Shown here: positions 4,872-57,924 of the stretch, piece by piece
Layout: every line of letters starts with the position of its first letter
How positions within the stretch are numbered: the first letter of the stretch is position 1
Source of the DNA: Candidatus Moraniibacteriota bacterium
GTDB lineage: Bacteria > Patescibacteriota > Minisyncoccia > Moranbacterales > UBA2206
Direction: 5' to 3'
DNA length: 64,000 bases
Assembly: GCA_030645735.1 (NCBI GenBank)
Contig: JAUSNP010000005.1
Span: 72,151-136,150, forward strand
Made by a program: the position numbers and the translations under genes
The notes under the pieces: generated by a model
The model's database searches: none
What the model was told of the DNA's origin: nothing
The model's input: only the letters and a program-made list of their open reading frames with translations

Positions 4872-5795
4872 TTATTTTATAAACTTTGTCACTGCTTTTT
4901 GTATATCAGAATATTTGGTCAGCCAGAGAATTTTTTTGTCTTTTTGAAACCAAGTCATTTGGCGCTTGGCATAATCTTTTTCGGCCAGATAGACGCGTTC
5001 ATATAATTCTTCCAGAGTTATTTCTTCTCGCAGATATTTAGGAATCCAAAAATATCCCAAGCCAAAGCTTTGAATTTTTTTCCAACTCAATCCAACTTTG
5101 TGCAATTTTTGCACCTCTTCAAGCATGCCATCTTTCCATCTTTGATCAAGACGTTTTTTGATTTTGGCGTGCAGTTTTTCTTTGCCAGGGTTGATGCCGA
5201 TTTTCAAGGACGCATAACGTGGAACGTGGAGCGTGGAACGATTGTCTGGAACTCGGCCAACGGCTTGGCAGATTTCGATGGCACGAATGAGGCGCACTTT
5301 GTTTTTGGCATCGATGTTTTCAGCACGGCGAGTATCTAGTTTTTTGAGTTTGGTGAATAATTCTTCAGTCGATTTTGTTTCTAAATCTTTGCGTAGCTCC
5401 CAGTTTGGCGCAACCTCTGGATAAACAATATTATCAACCACTGCATCAATCCAAAAGCCAGTGCCACCGCACAAGATGGGCAGCTTTCCGCGTTTCAAAA
5501 TGTCTGCAATAGCCTTGTCAGCTTTCTTCTTGAACTGTGCCACGCTGAAATTGGTTCTCGGACTAACAACATCGATCATGTGATGATCTATGCCTTCTGA
5601 TAAAAACGTTCCACGTTCCACGTTCCACGTTCCAGGAATTTTTCCCGTGCCCACATCCATGCCGCGATAAATCTGGCGTGAATCTACTGAGACCACCTCA
5701 CCGTCAAATTTTTTGGCAAGCTCAATAGCCACCGCTGATTTGCCGGCTGAGGTTGGGCCTAATATTACGATAACTTTATTTAATTTATCTTTCAT
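4872..5795 (-). CDS. miaA: tRNA dimethylallyltransferase
   Basis: P-loop GPTSAGKSAVAIELAKKF...VSVDSRQIYRGMDVGTGK; 307 aa; adjacent to miaB. Confidence 0.9.
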   Translation of the reverse strand: MKDKLNKVIVILGPTSAGKSAVAIELAKKFDGEVVSVDSRQIYRGMDVGTGKIPGTWNVERGTFLSEGIDHHMIDVVSPRTNFSVAQFKKKADKAIADILKRGKLPILCGGTGFWIDAVVDNIVYPEVAPNWELRKDLETKSTEELFTKLKKLDTRRAENIDAKNKVRLIRAIEICQAVGRVPDNRSTLHVPRYASLKIGINPGKEKLHAKIKKRLDQRWKDGMLEEVQKLHKVGLSWKKIQSFGLGYFWIPKYLREEITLEELYERVYLAEKDYAKRQMTWFQKDKKILWLTKYSDIQKAVTKFIK

Positions 5796-5803
5796 ATACC
5801 CTT

Positions 5804-5904
5804 TGTCATTCCGGCCTTGACCCGGAATCTACTTACCGTAATTGCGAATTTAAATTTATCTCATGAATTATTGAGAAGGTCCCGGGTCAAGCCCGGGATG
5901 ACAG
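5804..5904. repeat. Miniature inverted-repeat element (TGTCATTSC-TIR family), copy 1, in the miaA-miaB spacer
   Basis: Left arm tgtcattccggccttgacccggaatc and right arm ggtcccgggtcaagcccgggatgaca are mutual reverse complements (one mismatch), and each arm is itself a hairpin. The same termini recur at 22708, 34004 (half copy) and 56685. Confidence 0.55.
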
Positions 5905-5911
5905 ATATTTT

Positions 5912-7279
5912 TTAAATTACTTTACCTTCGAGATTCCATATTTTGATGCTAGTTATTTTCACTTTCACAAACTGGCCAACTAAATTATCTTTATTGGATG
6001 AAATCTTAATATTTTTTCCAGTTCTAGTCTTGCCAAAATAAATTATTAGTTTTGATTCGTTGTTGATTTGTTTGTCATTCGCGAGTTGCTTTTTTTCAAT
6101 TAAAACTTCTTGCACGGTGTTGAGATATTTTTTGTTGTTGGCGAAAGTGGTCTTTTTCAAAATTTCATTCAGGAAGGCTTCACGTTTTTCTTTTTCAGCA
6201 TCTGAAACATTGTCTTTCATAGTCCAAGCTACGGTGCCAGGGCGGGGTGAATATTGGCCAAAGAACACCATGTCGAATTTGGCTTTTTCCATAATCTCAG
6301 CCGAGCACAAAAATTGTTTTTTGGTTTCGCCAGGGAAACCAACAATGATGTCAGAGGTCAAGGCAAAAGGCACGCCAGGTTTGTATTTTTTGAAAGCAGC
6401 TTTGATTTTGCGTACCAAATTCATATAATGTTTGGCAGTGTATTTGCGATTCATTTTTTGGATGACTTCATCTGAGCCAGACTGAACAGGCAGATGCACA
6501 GCTTCGCAAACTTTTTTGGATCTGGCAACAACTTCAATCAATTCATCCGACATATCCTTTGGGTGGGAAGACACAAATTGAATCCAAAACTTCCCTGGAA
6601 TCGCATCAATCTTTTTTAGCAACTGAGCAAAATTAATTTCTTGCGCTCCACGTTTTGCGTTCCACGTTCCACGATATGAATTTACATTCTGACCAAGCAG
6701 AGTGATAGATCTATAGCCAAGTTTAATCAGGCTTTTTATTTCATCAATTATTTCTTCGGCTGGTCGGGAAGTTTCGCGACCGCGAGCATAGGGGACGACG
6801 CAGTAGGAGCAGAAGTTGTTGCAGCCAGTCATGATGGGAACCTGCGCAGAGAATCTGGTTGTGTATTTTGGTTGTATTTTTAGATATTGATTCAAGCCAT
6901 CGTCAAAAGTAGTTTGTAGTTTGTAGTTTGTAGTTGGTAGAATTTTTTCAATTTCGCTTGGAAAGTTTTTGATTTCACAAAACAAATCAACATTGCCCTT
7001 GAGTCGTCTTTGCACGTCTTTGCGATTGGCAATACAGCCTGTCAGCACGATTAGCGGTCTACATTCCACGTTTTGTATTCCATGTTTCCTGAGGTTGTGA
7101 ATCAGGCTGTAGGCTCGGTTTTCAGCCGCCTGACGTACTCCACAAGTGTTGAAAATGACCAAGGAGGCCTCTGTCATGTCGGAAGCCGTCTGATAGCCCT
7201 TCTCGTCCAAAAAGCCCGCAATTCGCTCAGAATCCGAGATATTCATTTGACAGCCGAAGGTTTTAATGTAATATTTCAT
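5912..7279 (-). CDS. miaB: tRNA-i6A37 methylthiotransferase (radical SAM MTTase)
   Basis: MKYYIKTFGCQMNISDSE N-terminus, radical-SAM CNNFCSYC motif and a TRAM C-terminus; 455 aa. Confidence 0.9.
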   Translation of the reverse strand: MKYYIKTFGCQMNISDSERIAGFLDEKGYQTASDMTEASLVIFNTCGVRQAAENRAYSLIHNLRKHGIQNVECRPLIVLTGCIANRKDVQRRLKGNVDLFCEIKNFPSEIEKILPTTNYKLQTTFDDGLNQYLKIQPKYTTRFSAQVPIMTGCNNFCSYCVVPYARGRETSRPAEEIIDEIKSLIKLGYRSITLLGQNVNSYRGTWNAKRGAQEINFAQLLKKIDAIPGKFWIQFVSSHPKDMSDELIEVVARSKKVCEAVHLPVQSGSDEVIQKMNRKYTAKHYMNLVRKIKAAFKKYKPGVPFALTSDIIVGFPGETKKQFLCSAEIMEKAKFDMVFFGQYSPRPGTVAWTMKDNVSDAEKEKREAFLNEILKKTTFANNKKYLNTVQEVLIEKKQLANDKQINNESKLIIYFGKTRTGKNIKISSNKDNLVGQFVKVKITSIKIWNLEGKVI

Positions 7280-21539: not shown

Positions 21540-21674
21540 AAAAGACAAATTTCATATAGAATAAATATAATATCCGTAGACAGTAGGCATCCATAAGCCC
21601 TACCGAGGAAGGCCAAAGTGGCTTTTTAGTCTGCGATCAAACGCAGATTTTAATTTTTTAAAGGCACTATCAAT
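21540..21674 (+). promoter_or_regulatory. Candidate structured ribosomal-protein L10 leader (autoregulatory 5' UTR of rplJ-rplL)
   Basis: 135-nt untranslated region with hairpins gcc-aaagt-ggc+TTTTT and tctgcg-atcaaa-cgcaga+TTTT directly before rplJ; position matches known L10-leader regulation in other bacteria. Confidence 0.4.
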
Positions 21675-22642: not shown

Positions 22643-22664
22643 TTTTCAAAAAACTTTCAATACA

Positions 22665-22700
22665 AAAAAGAAGCTCGTAATTGAGCTTCTTTTTTTTGTT
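22665..22700 (+). terminator. Intrinsic terminator after rplL
   Basis: AAGAAGCTC-gtaatt-GAGCTTCTT followed by T8. Confidence 0.65.
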
Positions 22701-22707
22701 TTTCTTC

Positions 22708-22807
22708 TGTCATTGCGAGCGACTGAAAGGAGCGCGGCAATCCCATGATTCGTGCATCAGAACTAGAGATTGCCACAGTCGTTCTGCGGAACTCCTTCGC
22801 AATGACA
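22708..22807. repeat. Miniature inverted-repeat element (TGTCATTSC-TIR family), copy 2
   Basis: Termini ctgtcattgcgag...ctccttcgcaatgacaa; internal inverted repeat gcggcaatc...gattgccac. Confidence 0.55.
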
Positions 22808-33237: not shown

Positions 33238-33840
33238 TTGCCCAAAGCTGGGTTTTGGAATAAAATTTTTAGTAGAATACAAAATAAAAATAATTTCAAA
33301 AACAAAAACATGGGCGAGCCTGCTTATAAAAATCTTTTGACTTACAAATATGCCGTGCTTATTTATGATATGAACAAAGAATTCATCGCACGATTTGTTT
33401 CTGGGGCAGAAAACATGAGGCAACGTCAACAGATGGACCAAGCGGCACGCTCATCCAAACAATGCATCGTCGAAGGCGCGATGCAGGGCACGAGTCTCAA
33501 GGGTTATATCAAAATGCTTGGAGTTTCGCGAGGGAGTTGGGAGGAATTGCTGGAGGATTATAAGGATATTGCCAGGCTTGGGAAAATTGAGGTTTGGAAT
33601 TCTGAGGGGTTGAGGAGGGAAAGGGGGTTCAGGGTTTTCGTGAAAGACAACGAACCTCTACCTCCTACACCTCCGCTACCTCCTGACTTCGCTGTGTCGG
33701 TCAACATTATGATTGATCTCATCACAAGGACAAACTTTCTTCTGGATCAACAAAAAAGAGCGCTAGAAGAAAAGTTTTTGAGAGAGGGTGGTTACACTGA
33801 AAATTTGTACAAAAAACGCAGAGAAACGAGAGGGTTTTAG
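33238..33840 (+). CDS. Four-helix-bundle protein (23S rRNA intervening-sequence protein family-like); real start probably MGEPAYK
   Basis: The segment YKYAVLIYDMNKEFIARFVSGAENMRQRQQMDQAARSSKQCIVEGAMQGTSLKGYIKMLGVSRGSWEELL matches the general pattern of the family; terminator at 33862-33888. Confidence 0.45.
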   Translation: MPKAGFWNKIFSRIQNKNNFKNKNMGEPAYKNLLTYKYAVLIYDMNKEFIARFVSGAENMRQRQQMDQAARSSKQCIVEGAMQGTSLKGYIKMLGVSRGSWEELLEDYKDIARLGKIEVWNSEGLRRERGFRVFVKDNEPLPPTPPLPPDFAVSVNIMIDLITRTNFLLDQQKRALEEKFLREGGYTENLYKKRRETRGF

Positions 33841-34003
33841 TTTGTAATATTGAATATCCAGCAGCCTTGTTAGGGCTGTTTTTTTGTCGCTCGACCTGTG
33901 GATAACTCGCCCTTGCCAATGTGGGTGAGTGGAGTAAAATAGGGAGGTAGGTAACTCAAGTGGTACATTGTGGGGATTCACAATTAGATACTACTGAATA
34001 AGC

Positions 34004-34047
34004 GCGAGATTGCCACGTCGTCCGCGGCGGACTCCTCGCAATGACAA
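34004..34047. repeat. Half copy (right arm) of the TGTCATTSC-TIR element family
   Basis: gagattgccacgtcgtccgcggcggactcctcgcaatgaca is about 85% identical to the right arm of copy 2 (22766-22807); no left arm detectable. Confidence 0.45.
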
Positions 34048-34052
34048 TAAAG

Positions 34053-34487
34053 ATGTTCATAGGCGAATACCAACATTTAGTTGACGAGAAAAAAAGATTG
34101 GCGGTGCCAAGCAAGTTTCGAGTCGAGTTGAAAAACAAAGTTGTGGTGACACGCGGACTTGATAAATGTTTGTTTGTCTATCCAATGAAAGCTTGGGAAG
34201 AGTTGGCCAGCAAATTGGGAACCTTGCCAGTCGGAGAAGCTGGCACCCGAAGTTTCACGCGTTTGATGTTGGCTGGAGCAGTGGATGTGGATGTGGACAA
34301 GCAAGGAAGAATTTTGATTCCAGATTATTTGAAAGAATATGCAGGACTGGCGAAAAATGTTGTGATTGCAGGACTGTATAATCGTTTAGAAATTTGGGAT
34401 GAAAAGAAATGGAACGCATACAAGAAAGGTGCTGAGAAAAATTCAGATGAGATTGCGGAACAGTTGGGCAAGTTAGGAGTATATTAG
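34053..34487 (+). CDS. mraZ: Transcriptional regulator MraZ
   Basis: MFIGEYQHLVDEKKRLAVPSKFR and a second SpoVT/AbrB-like repeat; the ORF-track start at 34041 would overlap the repeat element, so the ATG at 34053 is preferred. Confidence 0.85.
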   Translation: MFIGEYQHLVDEKKRLAVPSKFRVELKNKVVVTRGLDKCLFVYPMKAWEELASKLGTLPVGEAGTRSFTRLMLAGAVDVDVDKQGRILIPDYLKEYAGLAKNVVIAGLYNRLEIWDEKKWNAYKKGAEKNSDEIAEQLGKLGVY

Positions 34488-40566: not shown

Positions 40567-40698
40567 CTCGTGTAAACTAGTTTTAGGCTCAAAGTGTGCC
40601 AGATTAGTGTTGTGTATGGCCTCATCGTCTAGCGGCTAGCCCGCCTCGCATCGACGAGCGGTCGTCTCCGCGAGTCGAGGCGGGGACGCTAAACAATT

Positions 40699-40947
40699 AT
40701 GGCAATATTTATCTATCAATTAATTAGCGAAGATAGAACGAAAACATATATTGGCTTTTCGGATGATTTAGATAGAAGAATTTCTGAACATTTAGCTGGT
40801 AAGGTAAAAACAACAAAGAATTTCGGTGAGTTTAGCCATAGAATTTTAGAGAAAGTTAATGATATCAGGTTAGCTAGAATTGCTGAAAAATATTGGAAAT
40901 CAGCATCTGGCAGGAAAAAATTAAAAGAACAGTTTGATGTAGAATAG
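40699..40947 (+). CDS. GIY-YIG nuclease superfamily small protein
   Basis: IFIYQLISEDRTKTYIGFSDDLDRRISEHLAG: GIY...YIG, conserved Arg and E/H; 82 aa; resembles free-standing UPF0213/Slx1-like GIY-YIG proteins. Confidence 0.7.
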   Translation: MAIFIYQLISEDRTKTYIGFSDDLDRRISEHLAGKVKTTKNFGEFSHRILEKVNDIRLARIAEKYWKSASGRKKLKEQFDVE

Positions 40948-40954
40948 GAAACAT

Positions 40955-41029
40955 GCCGCCATCGTCTAGCCCGGTCAGGACGCCAGGTTCTCATCCTGGA
41001 AATCAGGGGTTCGAATCCCCTTGGCGGTA
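40955..41029 (+). tRNA. tRNA-Glu (anticodon CUC)
   Basis: GCCGCCATCGTCTAGCCCGGTCAGGACGCCAGGTTCTCATCCTGGAAATCAGGGGTTCGAATCCCCTTGGCGGTA: 7-bp acceptor, Glu-type D-arm TCGTCTAG, anticodon loop TTCTCAT, T-loop GGTTCGAATCC. Confidence 0.8.
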
Positions 41030-41053
41030 CTTTTAAAAATAATTTCAAACTTT

Positions 41054-56571: not shown

Positions 56572-56684
56572 GTGGCTAAGGAGGGAGCTATGAGCAACTA
56601 TGTTTCGAAGATTCATTCGAAACCTCTAGTTGCTTTTTTTATTTACACAAAAGGCTAAATATAATATGATTACTCTATGATCGC

Positions 56685-56763
56685 TGTCATTCCCGCGTAG
56701 GCGGGAATCTAGGGTAGAAACTTAATGATGCATGACTGGATTCCCGTTTCCACGGGAATGACA
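56685..56763. repeat. Miniature inverted-repeat element (TGTCATTSC-TIR family), copy 4, just upstream of mnmA
   Basis: tgtcattcccgcgtaggcgggaatc ... gattcccgtttccacgggaatgaca; same arm architecture as copy 1. Confidence 0.55.
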
Positions 56764-56772
56764 ATTATACAA

Positions 56773-57924
56773 ATGAAAAAAATGGCAAAAAAACCTAGAG
56801 TAATTGTGGGTATGTCCAGTGGAGTTGATTCTTCGGTGGCAGCGGCGCTTTTGAAAAAACAGGGCTTTGATGTCGTGGGGGTTTTTATGCATTTTTGGAA
56901 AGAACCGACACAAGATAGTTTAATTGAAAACAAATGTTGTTCCTTGGAATCCTTGGAAGATGCGCGCAAAGTGTGTCAGATTTTGGGTATTCCGCTCTAC
57001 ACAGCTAATGCTGAGAAAGAATTCAAGAAAGAAGTGGTGGACTATTTTTTGCAAGAATATGCCGAAGGGAGAACTCCCAATCCATGTGTGGCCTGCAATG
57101 AGCACATCAAGTTTCATGTGTTGATGAAGAAAATGTTGGAAATGGAAGGGGATTACATCGCTTCAGGGCATTATTCAATTAATGAAATGGGCAAGGATGG
57201 AAAATATCATCTGTTCCAGGGCAAGGATGAAGAAAAAGATCAGTCTTATTTTTTGTATAATTTCAATCAAAAGCAATTGGCGAAAATTTTGTTTCCAGTC
57301 GGGAAATATAAGAAGCTGGAGATTCGAAAAATTGCTGAGAAATTGAAGTTGCCAGTTTTCAACAAAGATGATTCACAAGGCTTATGTTTCACGCCGGAAA
57401 AATATCCAGAAAACTTTTTGCGCCGAAATTTGCAATTGAAAAAAGGCAAAATTCAAAACACCGCTGGCAAAGTGGTGGGTGAGCATGATGGTTTGCCACT
57501 CTACACCATTGGCCAAAGACGCGGCATCAATATCGGAGGCGACGGTCCATATTTTGTAGTGGGCAAAGATTTGACCAAAAACATTTTGATTGTGACTAAT
57601 GATGAAAAAGATCCAAATCTGGTTTGCTCGCAAATGCAGGTGGAAAAGGTCAATTGGATTGTTTCCGAACCGAAATTGCCTTTGAAAATATTGGTCAAAA
57701 CCCGATACCGGCATCAGGCGGTTTCTGCTATAATAGAAAGCGTAGAACGTGGAACGCAAAACGTAAAACGTAAAATGCAGGATGCTGGGCGATCCACGAT
57801 CAACGATCCACGATCAACGTATACAGTCGTGTTTGATGAACCGCAGCGGGCAATTTCACCAGGGCAGTCGGCAGTTTTTTATACTAAACAAGGCGAAATG
57901 ATTGGTGGTGGCAGAATAATCTAA
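56773..57924 (+). CDS. mnmA: tRNA-specific 2-thiouridylase
   Basis: PP-loop VIVGMSSGVDSSVAAALL, catalytic Cys, C-terminal VVFDEPQRAISPGQSAVFY; the ORF-track start at 56725 lies inside the repeat element, so the ATG at 56773 is preferred; contains an approximately 19-aa repeat-encoded insertion. Confidence 0.88.
   Translation: MKKMAKKPRVIVGMSSGVDSSVAAALLKKQGFDVVGVFMHFWKEPTQDSLIENKCCSLESLEDARKVCQILGIPLYTANAEKEFKKEVVDYFLQEYAEGRTPNPCVACNEHIKFHVLMKKMLEMEGDYIASGHYSINEMGKDGKYHLFQGKDEEKDQSYFLYNFNQKQLAKILFPVGKYKKLEIRKIAEKLKLPVFNKDDSQGLCFTPEKYPENFLRRNLQLKKGKIQNTAGKVVGEHDGLPLYTIGQRRGINIGGDGPYFVVGKDLTKNILIVTNDEKDPNLVCSQMQVEKVNWIVSEPKLPLKILVKTRYRHQAVSAIIESVERGTQNVKRKMQDAGRSTINDPRSTYTVVFDEPQRAISPGQSAVFYTKQGEMIGGGRII

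Follow-up and report, generated by a model that had tools for sequence, protein, structure and literature searches.

Intergenic hairpin repeats in a Candidatus Moranbacteria genome: probable members of the SRM/NTS-dRS3 class

Four intergenic loci of a Candidatus Moranbacteria genome probably consist of SRM hairpin repeats, to which the NTS and dRS3 repeats of Neisseria also belong. They lie in a 64-kb stretch of DNA, the whole of which we call the window. It holds seven GC-rich hairpin units, each built as (T)GTCAT-stem-loop-stem-C; six of them face outward in three inverted pairs, and one stands alone. A preliminary description had presented the loci as a new family of miniature inverted-repeat transposable elements (MITEs). 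The repeat class is already described (SRM/NTS in 2025, dRS3/NIME since about 2000) and very widespread, and the units do not constitute a new family; in its place stands a specific and testable identity, namely targets of the single-stranded DNA (ssDNA) nuclease Ssn. What is new here is a member of the SRM/NTS-dRS3 class in a new host lineage, the Moranbacteria (Patescibacteria/CPR).

We scanned the window with the regular expression GTCAT[TC][GC]C...G[GC][AG]AT[CT]. It matched six units (5805-5829, 22709-22742 and 56686-56709 on the plus strand; 22768-22806, 34008-34045 and 56739-56762 on the minus strand), compared with about 1.0 in Markov shuffles. A seventh, slightly degenerate unit, TGTCATCCCGGGCTTGACCCGGGACC, was located at 5880-5903 on the minus strand. 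With these counts the inverted-repeat elements first noticed at four sites proved to be real, and their placement at gene boundaries was confirmed, all seven units being intergenic.

Copy 1 spans 5804-5903; its start is as first described and its end lies at 5903, not 5904. Its left hairpin unit, TGTCATTCCGGCCTTGACCCGGAATC, is of a CTTGAC-loop subtype (5804-5829, plus strand; ssDNA hairpin of -5.6 kcal/mol, z -3.3) and its right unit, TGTCATCCCGGGCTTGACCCGGGA on the minus strand (5880-5903; z -4.4), fits the published SRM pattern. The AT-rich spacer between them (5830-5879, 28% GC) has no kinship to the other spacers. Copy 1 is also contained in the Logan assembly of SRR13727526, together with an identical MiaA protein. 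Copy 2 (22708-22807) pairs two units of a GCGAG subtype, the left one at 22708-22742 on the plus strand (TGTCATTGCGAG...GGCAATC; regular expression, alignment and folding) and the right one at 22768-22807 on the minus strand (regular expression), around a spacer at 22743-22767 that was delimited by the element alignment. Copy 3, found by the regular expression at 34008-34046 on the minus strand, belongs to the same subtype; it had been taken for a half copy, yet it is a unit standing alone rather than a broken half. In copy 4 (56685-56763), the left unit TGTCATTCCCGCGTAGGCGGGAATCTAG (56685-56712, plus strand; z -5.1) and the right unit TGTCATTCCCGTGGAAACGGGAATCCAG (56736-56763, minus strand) enclose an AT-rich spacer, again placed by the alignment (56713-56735). 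The window arms thus comprise three subtypes. Their GC content is 52-67%, that of the spacers 28-44% and that of the window 40.7%.

A full-text literature search with the CC-type head GTCATTCCCGC led to the work of Chenal et al. (Nat Commun 2025; PMC11893778), while the head string of the GCGAG type gave no relevant literature match. In that work the NTS is CGTCATTCCCGCGMAVGCGGGAATCYRG, which contains the dRS3 core ATTCCC-N8-GGGAAT, and a generalised Ssn-related motif (SRM) is defined beside it. Binding of Ssn to the hairpin requires single-stranded DNA, and the enzyme makes a strand-specific cut a few nucleotides 5' of the hairpin. Cleavage depends on the three bases that precede the palindrome, and for SsnA binding no base matters more than the C that follows it (PMC11893778).

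The window units share this architecture. Each is an oriented module with a 5' (T/C)GTCAT, a G+C-rich stem-loop whose stem starts as ATTSC...GSAAT, and a 3' C, and in this, as in their intergenic position, they resemble SRM/NTS (PMC11893778). When the seven units were aligned with the NTS and with units from a Rhodocyclaceae genome, the columns that never varied were GTCAT, the base of the stem and the C following the palindrome, that is, the positions reported to be critical for SsnA cleavage and binding (PMC11893778). GTC(A) 5' of the palindrome together with the 3' C, by which SRMs are oriented, was present in all seven. The left unit of copy 4 agrees with the NTS consensus at 26 of 28 positions, where zero such units were expected by chance. 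Its right unit has four mismatches by hand count, two of which amount to a compensatory exchange of C:G for T:A. Neisseria NTS in the strict sense (CGTCATTCCCGCGMAVGCGGGAATCYRG with at most one mismatch) was not found, the best window unit having two mismatches, and the window units are therefore SRMs and not NTS proper.

The dRS3 core occurs exactly in both arms of copy 4, 31 bp apart (two versus 0.01 expected); copies 1-3 do not fit it. The published SRM search pattern, HGTCWYN(0-2)YYVSBRHN(0-5)WNVSBRGN(0-2)RNCYNB, fitted two of the seven units, at 5875-5903 on the minus strand and 56685-56712 on the plus strand (0.08 expected). It missed the other five because of their longer loops or their longer or different stems, which exceed the published pattern. 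The window units further depart from SRM/NTS in that their first base is T instead of C, their density in the window is low and no ssn gene lies within the 64 kb. Their host, too, is different: the CPR group, here Moranbacteria, is absent from the main text of PMC11893778.

Palindromes that arose by chance, without a common origin, could in principle mimic such a set, and the bare 8-mer GTCATTSC is indeed only about twofold enriched in the window (10 observed versus 5.4 expected). The shuffles already refute this reading, whose probability is close to nil: six full units stand against about one, and dRS3 cores and SRM pattern matches likewise exceed their expected numbers. The three pairs all face outward, and exact unit identity recurs in at least 120 other stretches of DNA.

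If each arm is itself a hairpin, as first described, then it should fold better than shuffled sequence. This held for the four CC-type arms, which as ssDNA form clean hairpins of 7-8 bp (z -3.3 to -5.1 versus shuffles), but hardly for the three GCGAG-type arms, which folded no better than their shuffles (z -0.3 to -0.9) and consist of a 5-bp closing stem, ATTGC/GCAAT, with an imperfect inner hairpin. The ATTSC/GSAAT stem was closed in the predicted ssDNA fold of all seven units, in keeping with SRM/NTS repeats, which are inverted repeats of 20-50 nt that can fold into a hairpin as ssDNA. The full elements align at their termini and stem bases, common to the copies, and their spacers are unalignable. 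The termini themselves are as first described save in one place: the right terminus of copy 1 is GGGATGACA, with GGTCCC as its inner end, rather than GSAATGACA and GATT.

Terminal inverted repeats, a size of 80-100 bp, intergenic sites and presence/absence relative to related genomes are what a classical MITE family would display, its non-autonomous members being derived by deletion from an insertion sequence that has TGTCATT... as terminal inverted repeats, and being moved by a DDE-type or TnpB/IS200-associated transposase acting in trans. We nevertheless consider such a family improbable. A search for target-site duplications found none, as the flanks of the copies share no direct repeat; those of copy 4 have only ATG/ATG at some distance, and those of copy 1 about 25 nt of gene overlap, apparently duplicated and since diverged. 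The three full copies lack homology over their whole length and have no common interior, only hairpin modules, with arms of three subtypes, and at copy 3 the unit has no partner. Since target-site duplications are absent and the spacers unrelated, the loci are to be seen as REP/NIME-like repeats of modular build and not as copies of a classical MITE. The earlier notion of a non-autonomous mobile or REP-like element family survives in part, in that the elements are repeated, hairpin-armed and inserted relative to related genomes, but not as far as target-site duplication and a common interior are concerned.

NIMEs (dRS3-RS-dRS3), which have been described as Neisseria-specific, are built in a similar manner, with GC-rich, 20-bp dRS3-type repeats that bracket a short, variable 'RS' spacer of lower GC (PMC1797815). 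Only copy 4 has ATTCCC-N8-GGGAAT units around an RS spacer of 19-214 bp, and in the 64-kb window the units are isolated instead of forming long arrays next to variable genes. Inverted hairpin pairs with variable spacers and no target-site duplication, for which an ssDNA-specific enzyme is proposed, are likewise reminiscent of REP/BIME-RAYT systems and of the 'peel and paste' of IS200/IS605 elements on ssDNA; the REP/BIME analogy for SRM repeats is drawn by PMC11893778 itself. That the loci are REP/BIME-type repeats serviced by a RAYT, that is, an IS200-like Y1 transposase, is nevertheless highly improbable. They carry the GTCAT...C signature of SRM/NTS and not the GTAG head of REPs, and the gene associated with them is of the GIY-YIG and not of the HUH/Y1 type: in at least 27 loci examined, such units flank GIY-YIG genes, not RAYTs. 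Among the six-frame ORFs of the window we detected no Y1 homologue with phmmer, using a single Y1_Tnp query from a relative (L137), a search of limited sensitivity; this also speaks against a MITE family moved by such an enzyme.

We then looked at the association with ssn genes in other genomes. Ssn-family proteins are single-domain GIY-YIG proteins of the cd10448 type, about 95 aa long, and an Ssn query consensus matched a very large family of proteins of this length with the PF01541 domain. In a Rhodocyclaceae genome, the Ssn-family gene P0130 is preceded by an NTS, 5 nt from its ATG, and its stop is followed by a double hairpin of the window type, NTS(+)-7 nt-unit(-). Scanning metagenomes with the exact 24-mer of the right arm of copy 4 yielded at least 120 stretches. 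Among those listed, the GC content of the hosts ranged from 30 to 67%, (+,-) pairs with spacers of 7-62 bp were present in 47, and canonical Ssn genes (141-168 bits) stood as unit(+)-ssn-unit(-) in four. In L279, perfect 28-nt ends, TGTCATTCCCGTGAAAACGGGAATCCAG, surround a unit(+)-ssn-unit(-) cassette. Within the IMG/VR viral contigs, 23 of 52 ssn loci had GTCA-hairpins on both sides, versus none of 96 shifted controls. The same units as in the window therefore flank canonical ssn genes on both sides in other contigs, as SRM/NTS do. No SsnA structure was available in the PDB for comparison.

The other two subtypes were found in similar surroundings. The CTTGAC-loop subtype, represented by the left unit of copy 1, flanks ssn genes in L307, L308, L311, L335 and L345, and in L351 an ssn homologue is flanked by units of the GCGAG subtype, to which copies 2 and 3 belong. 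A GC-type arm was paired with a CC-type arm in 12 of 59 pairs, and pairs faced outward in 59 cases versus 9. From the flanking of ssn genes and the mixing of arms we conclude that all three window subtypes form one Ssn-associated repeat system. Both observations also weaken the MITE reading, for arms are mixed and matched in the wider samples and every coding cassette found between such ends has a GIY-YIG gene. The paired form is a very common, modular and gene-less counterpart of the ssn cassette, and the window pairs are best read as gene-less miniatures of unit(+)-ssn-unit(-), comparable to isolated dRS3-RS-dRS3 elements (NIMEs). In 120 viral loci with unit pairs we found no Ssn gene, and when viral contigs were scanned for pairs of GCGAG heads in direct orientation, spaced by about 310 bp, none of the 15 loci had a GIY-YIG ORF. 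A looser scan for GTCA followed by any 7-bp stem was too noisy for use.

Two further arrangements were seen in these samples. Beside the canonical ssn gene of L292, positions 1000-1340 contain short tandem arrays of truncated unit heads, with TGTCATTCCAGTCCTTTCTTCTCACCT repeated about four times and additional GCGGGAATGACATGTGAAAATGGA-like repeats. In the phage-like IMG/VR contigs L064, L053 and L036, hairpin units occupy many successive intergenic regions, and the stretches examined held no GIY-YIG gene.

The mobilising enzyme had been supposed to lie outside the window, and we found neither a canonical ssn gene nor a Y1 homologue within the 64 kb. As to its nature, the suggested TnpB, IS200-like or Y1 enzyme gives way to a small GIY-YIG Ssn nuclease as the likely partner. 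The sole GIY-YIG gene of the window (40700-40948) encodes a single-domain protein of 82 aa (PF01541, E 2.5e-13; Y6, Y17 and E63). We set it aside as the partner nuclease, given its weak match to the Ssn HMM built here (16.8 bits), its conserved tRNA-Glu context and its unit-free relatives: no GTCATT units were found near its homologues in three of them.

This gene looks like a cassette resident in a tRNA-Glu gene. In the region 40618-41030 a pseudo-copy of the initial ~22 nt of tRNA-Glu(CTC), a GC-rich hairpin (CCCGCCTCG...CGAGGCGGG) and part of the anticodon stem lie ahead of it, in this order, and the intact tRNA-Glu(CTC) lies 7 nt after its stop. The same layout is present in L136, L137 and L138, with proteins 83-58% identical.

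A different GIY-YIG gene was found in L175, a Moraniibacteriota relative whose MnmA is 63% identical. Here a unit pair, the left arm of which equals the right arm of copy 4 save for one base, lies 35 bp from a gene for an 84-aa, UPF0213-like GIY-YIG protein with a GAKYT motif, which scored 32 bits against the Ssn HMM built here. Pair and gene (9563-9955 of L175) are situated just upstream of the mnmA promoter, in the same intergenic region as copy 4. Viral contigs contained no relatives of this GIY-YIG protein that we could find.

To place the elements in their genomic context, we compared the four loci with those of relatives. Pfam confirmed miaB, rplL, a PLD-like gene, mraZ and mnmA beside the elements. 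Copy 1 occupies a 116-bp gap between the co-directional genes miaB and miaA. In L127 (MiaA 89% identical) and in L122/L123 (81%) this site is empty, and miaB overlaps miaA by 25 nt. Copy 2 follows the rplL terminator (22664-22695) and precedes the stop of the convergent PLD-like gene (22827). Copy 3 lies between a promoter-like sequence, TTGCCA-16-TAAAAT (33913-33940), whose counterpart is also present in the relative L136, and the mraZ ATG at 34053. Copy 4 lies between the promoter and the start codon of mnmA. An association with tRNA-modification genes had been proposed; the other two sites adjoin rplL/PLD-like gene and mraZ, so that coincidence is the simplest explanation.

At mnmA, relatives reveal what the locus may have looked like before. 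In about 20 relatives of the Moranbacteria clade, the promoter TTTACA-17-TATGAT is followed 6 nt on by the mnmA ATG, without any element, and judged by its sequence mnmA appears to be leaderless in these genomes. The window retains this promoter together with a probable ancestral ATG of the leaderless type at 56677 (56642-56679, plus strand), as recognised from the mnmA starts of the relatives. In the window this ATG opens a 7-codon ORF, MIAVIPA and a stop, which ends in the left hairpin of copy 4, and the conserved MnmA N-terminus MAKKPRVIVGMS is found 105 nt downstream, at 56782 (or MKKMAKK at 56773). An in-frame ATG at 56725, inside copy 4, gives rise to a longer automatic mnmA ORF that is probably spurious. 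The reported overlap of elements with the start codons of mraZ and mnmA accordingly applies to the longest ORFs (ATG 34041 and 56725), but the conserved starts come after the elements, that of MraZ being MFIGEY at 34053. Because related Moranbacteria have no element where miaB meets miaA and none at the mnmA promoter, the elements were gained in this lineage; the loci of the closest relatives had no genuine units, versus seven in the 64 kb of the window.

Other features of these regions were recorded. A comparison of 5780-5930 with L127 and L122 shows miaB and miaA with intact ends around copy 1, as if the overlap had been duplicated and had then diverged. The window MiaA starts with MKDKLNKVIV.. 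where its relatives have MESRGKIVV.., and a new AAGGG box lies upstream. A ribosomal protein L10 leader is present upstream of rplJ/rplL (21556-21662; Rfam RF00557, 45 bits, just above the gathering score), and upstream of mraZ a 200-aa ORF (33238-33840) gave a weak match of 21 bits, below the threshold, to Pfam PF05635 (23S rRNA-intervening-sequence protein).

The positions of the elements invite another explanation, namely that the double hairpins persist since the host selects them as RNA leaders, stabilisers, attenuators or sRNAs. Copies 3 and 4 are located between promoter and start codon and copy 1 between co-directional genes, and whole-element folding is strong for copies 1 and 4 (z -4.7 to -5.9). 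Furthermore, two Rfam families resemble copy 4. WsnRNA46 (RF02625, Wolbachia sRNA 46) has the double-hairpin consensus TGTCAT..GGATCCAG-spacer-CTGGATCC..ATGACA, to which copy 4 gave a sub-threshold match over the full length (E 1.6e-5), and the consensus of FtrB (RF02748, Francisella sRNA B) contains GTCATTCCCGCGTAGGCGGGAATCT, identical to the left unit of copy 4. However, when 56666-56782 was searched in Rfam E-value mode, the scores of 33.2 and 26.3 bits fell far short of the gathering thresholds (65.3 and 66), and the likeness therefore reflects common repeat modules and not family membership. At gathering thresholds, an Rfam scan of the window returned nothing beyond two tRNAs and the L10 leader. 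The elements lack a T-tract for termination, copy 2 stands downstream of a terminator between convergent genes, and in every relative examined the orthologous sites are devoid of elements. The same units also occur in hosts of 30-67% GC and in arbitrary contexts. Selection for an RNA function is thus an unlikely cause of their persistence; an RNA effect is more likely a by-product, and the RNA reading is compatible with an SRM identity. Judged by their consensus sequences, WsnRNA46 and FtrB may themselves be largely repeat elements.

How might SRM units have come to these sites? An Ssn-family nuclease, encoded elsewhere in the genome or formerly present, would recognise the units when the DNA becomes single-stranded during replication, repair or DNA uptake. 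The units would then spread by an Ssn-dependent process, either ssDNA-based or recombinational, that leaves no target-site duplication. Once inserted, they would ride passively in transcripts, namely in the leaders of mnmA and mraZ and between the cistrons miaB and miaA, with stable RNA hairpins as a side effect. Counting against this account, no mechanism explains the extra bases that the inserted blocks of copies 1 and 4 carry beyond their hairpins. To our knowledge, repeat mobilisation by Ssn has been demonstrated by nobody, and the literature has established no mechanism of spreading. Chenal et al. raised possible mobility of the cassette as an idea and took it no further (PMC11893778). 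A bolder version, which we put forward only tentatively and rate as doubtful, is that the pairs are non-autonomous transposable elements, that is, gene-less derivatives of the cassette that a GIY-YIG Ssn moves in trans via an ssDNA intermediate.

These findings bear first on annotation. SRM hairpin modules seem to be the building blocks of at least two Rfam 'sRNA' families, and gene callers should be aware that the elements create spurious N-terminal extensions, as at mraZ and mnmA. Candidate-phyla-radiation bacteria depend on DNA uptake. That the repeat class reaches these bacteria is relevant as SsnA and NTS modulate transformation in Neisseria. The free combination of arm subtypes in gene-less double hairpins is the kind of picture one would expect of a cassette that is, or once was, mobile. 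If the pairs were indeed moved in trans by Ssn, this would represent a bacterial IS/MITE system driven by a GIY-YIG enzyme, with recent activity in a CPR (Moranbacteria) genome, and its insertions would have severed the leaderless mnmA start from its ORF and split the overlapping miaB/miaA pair.
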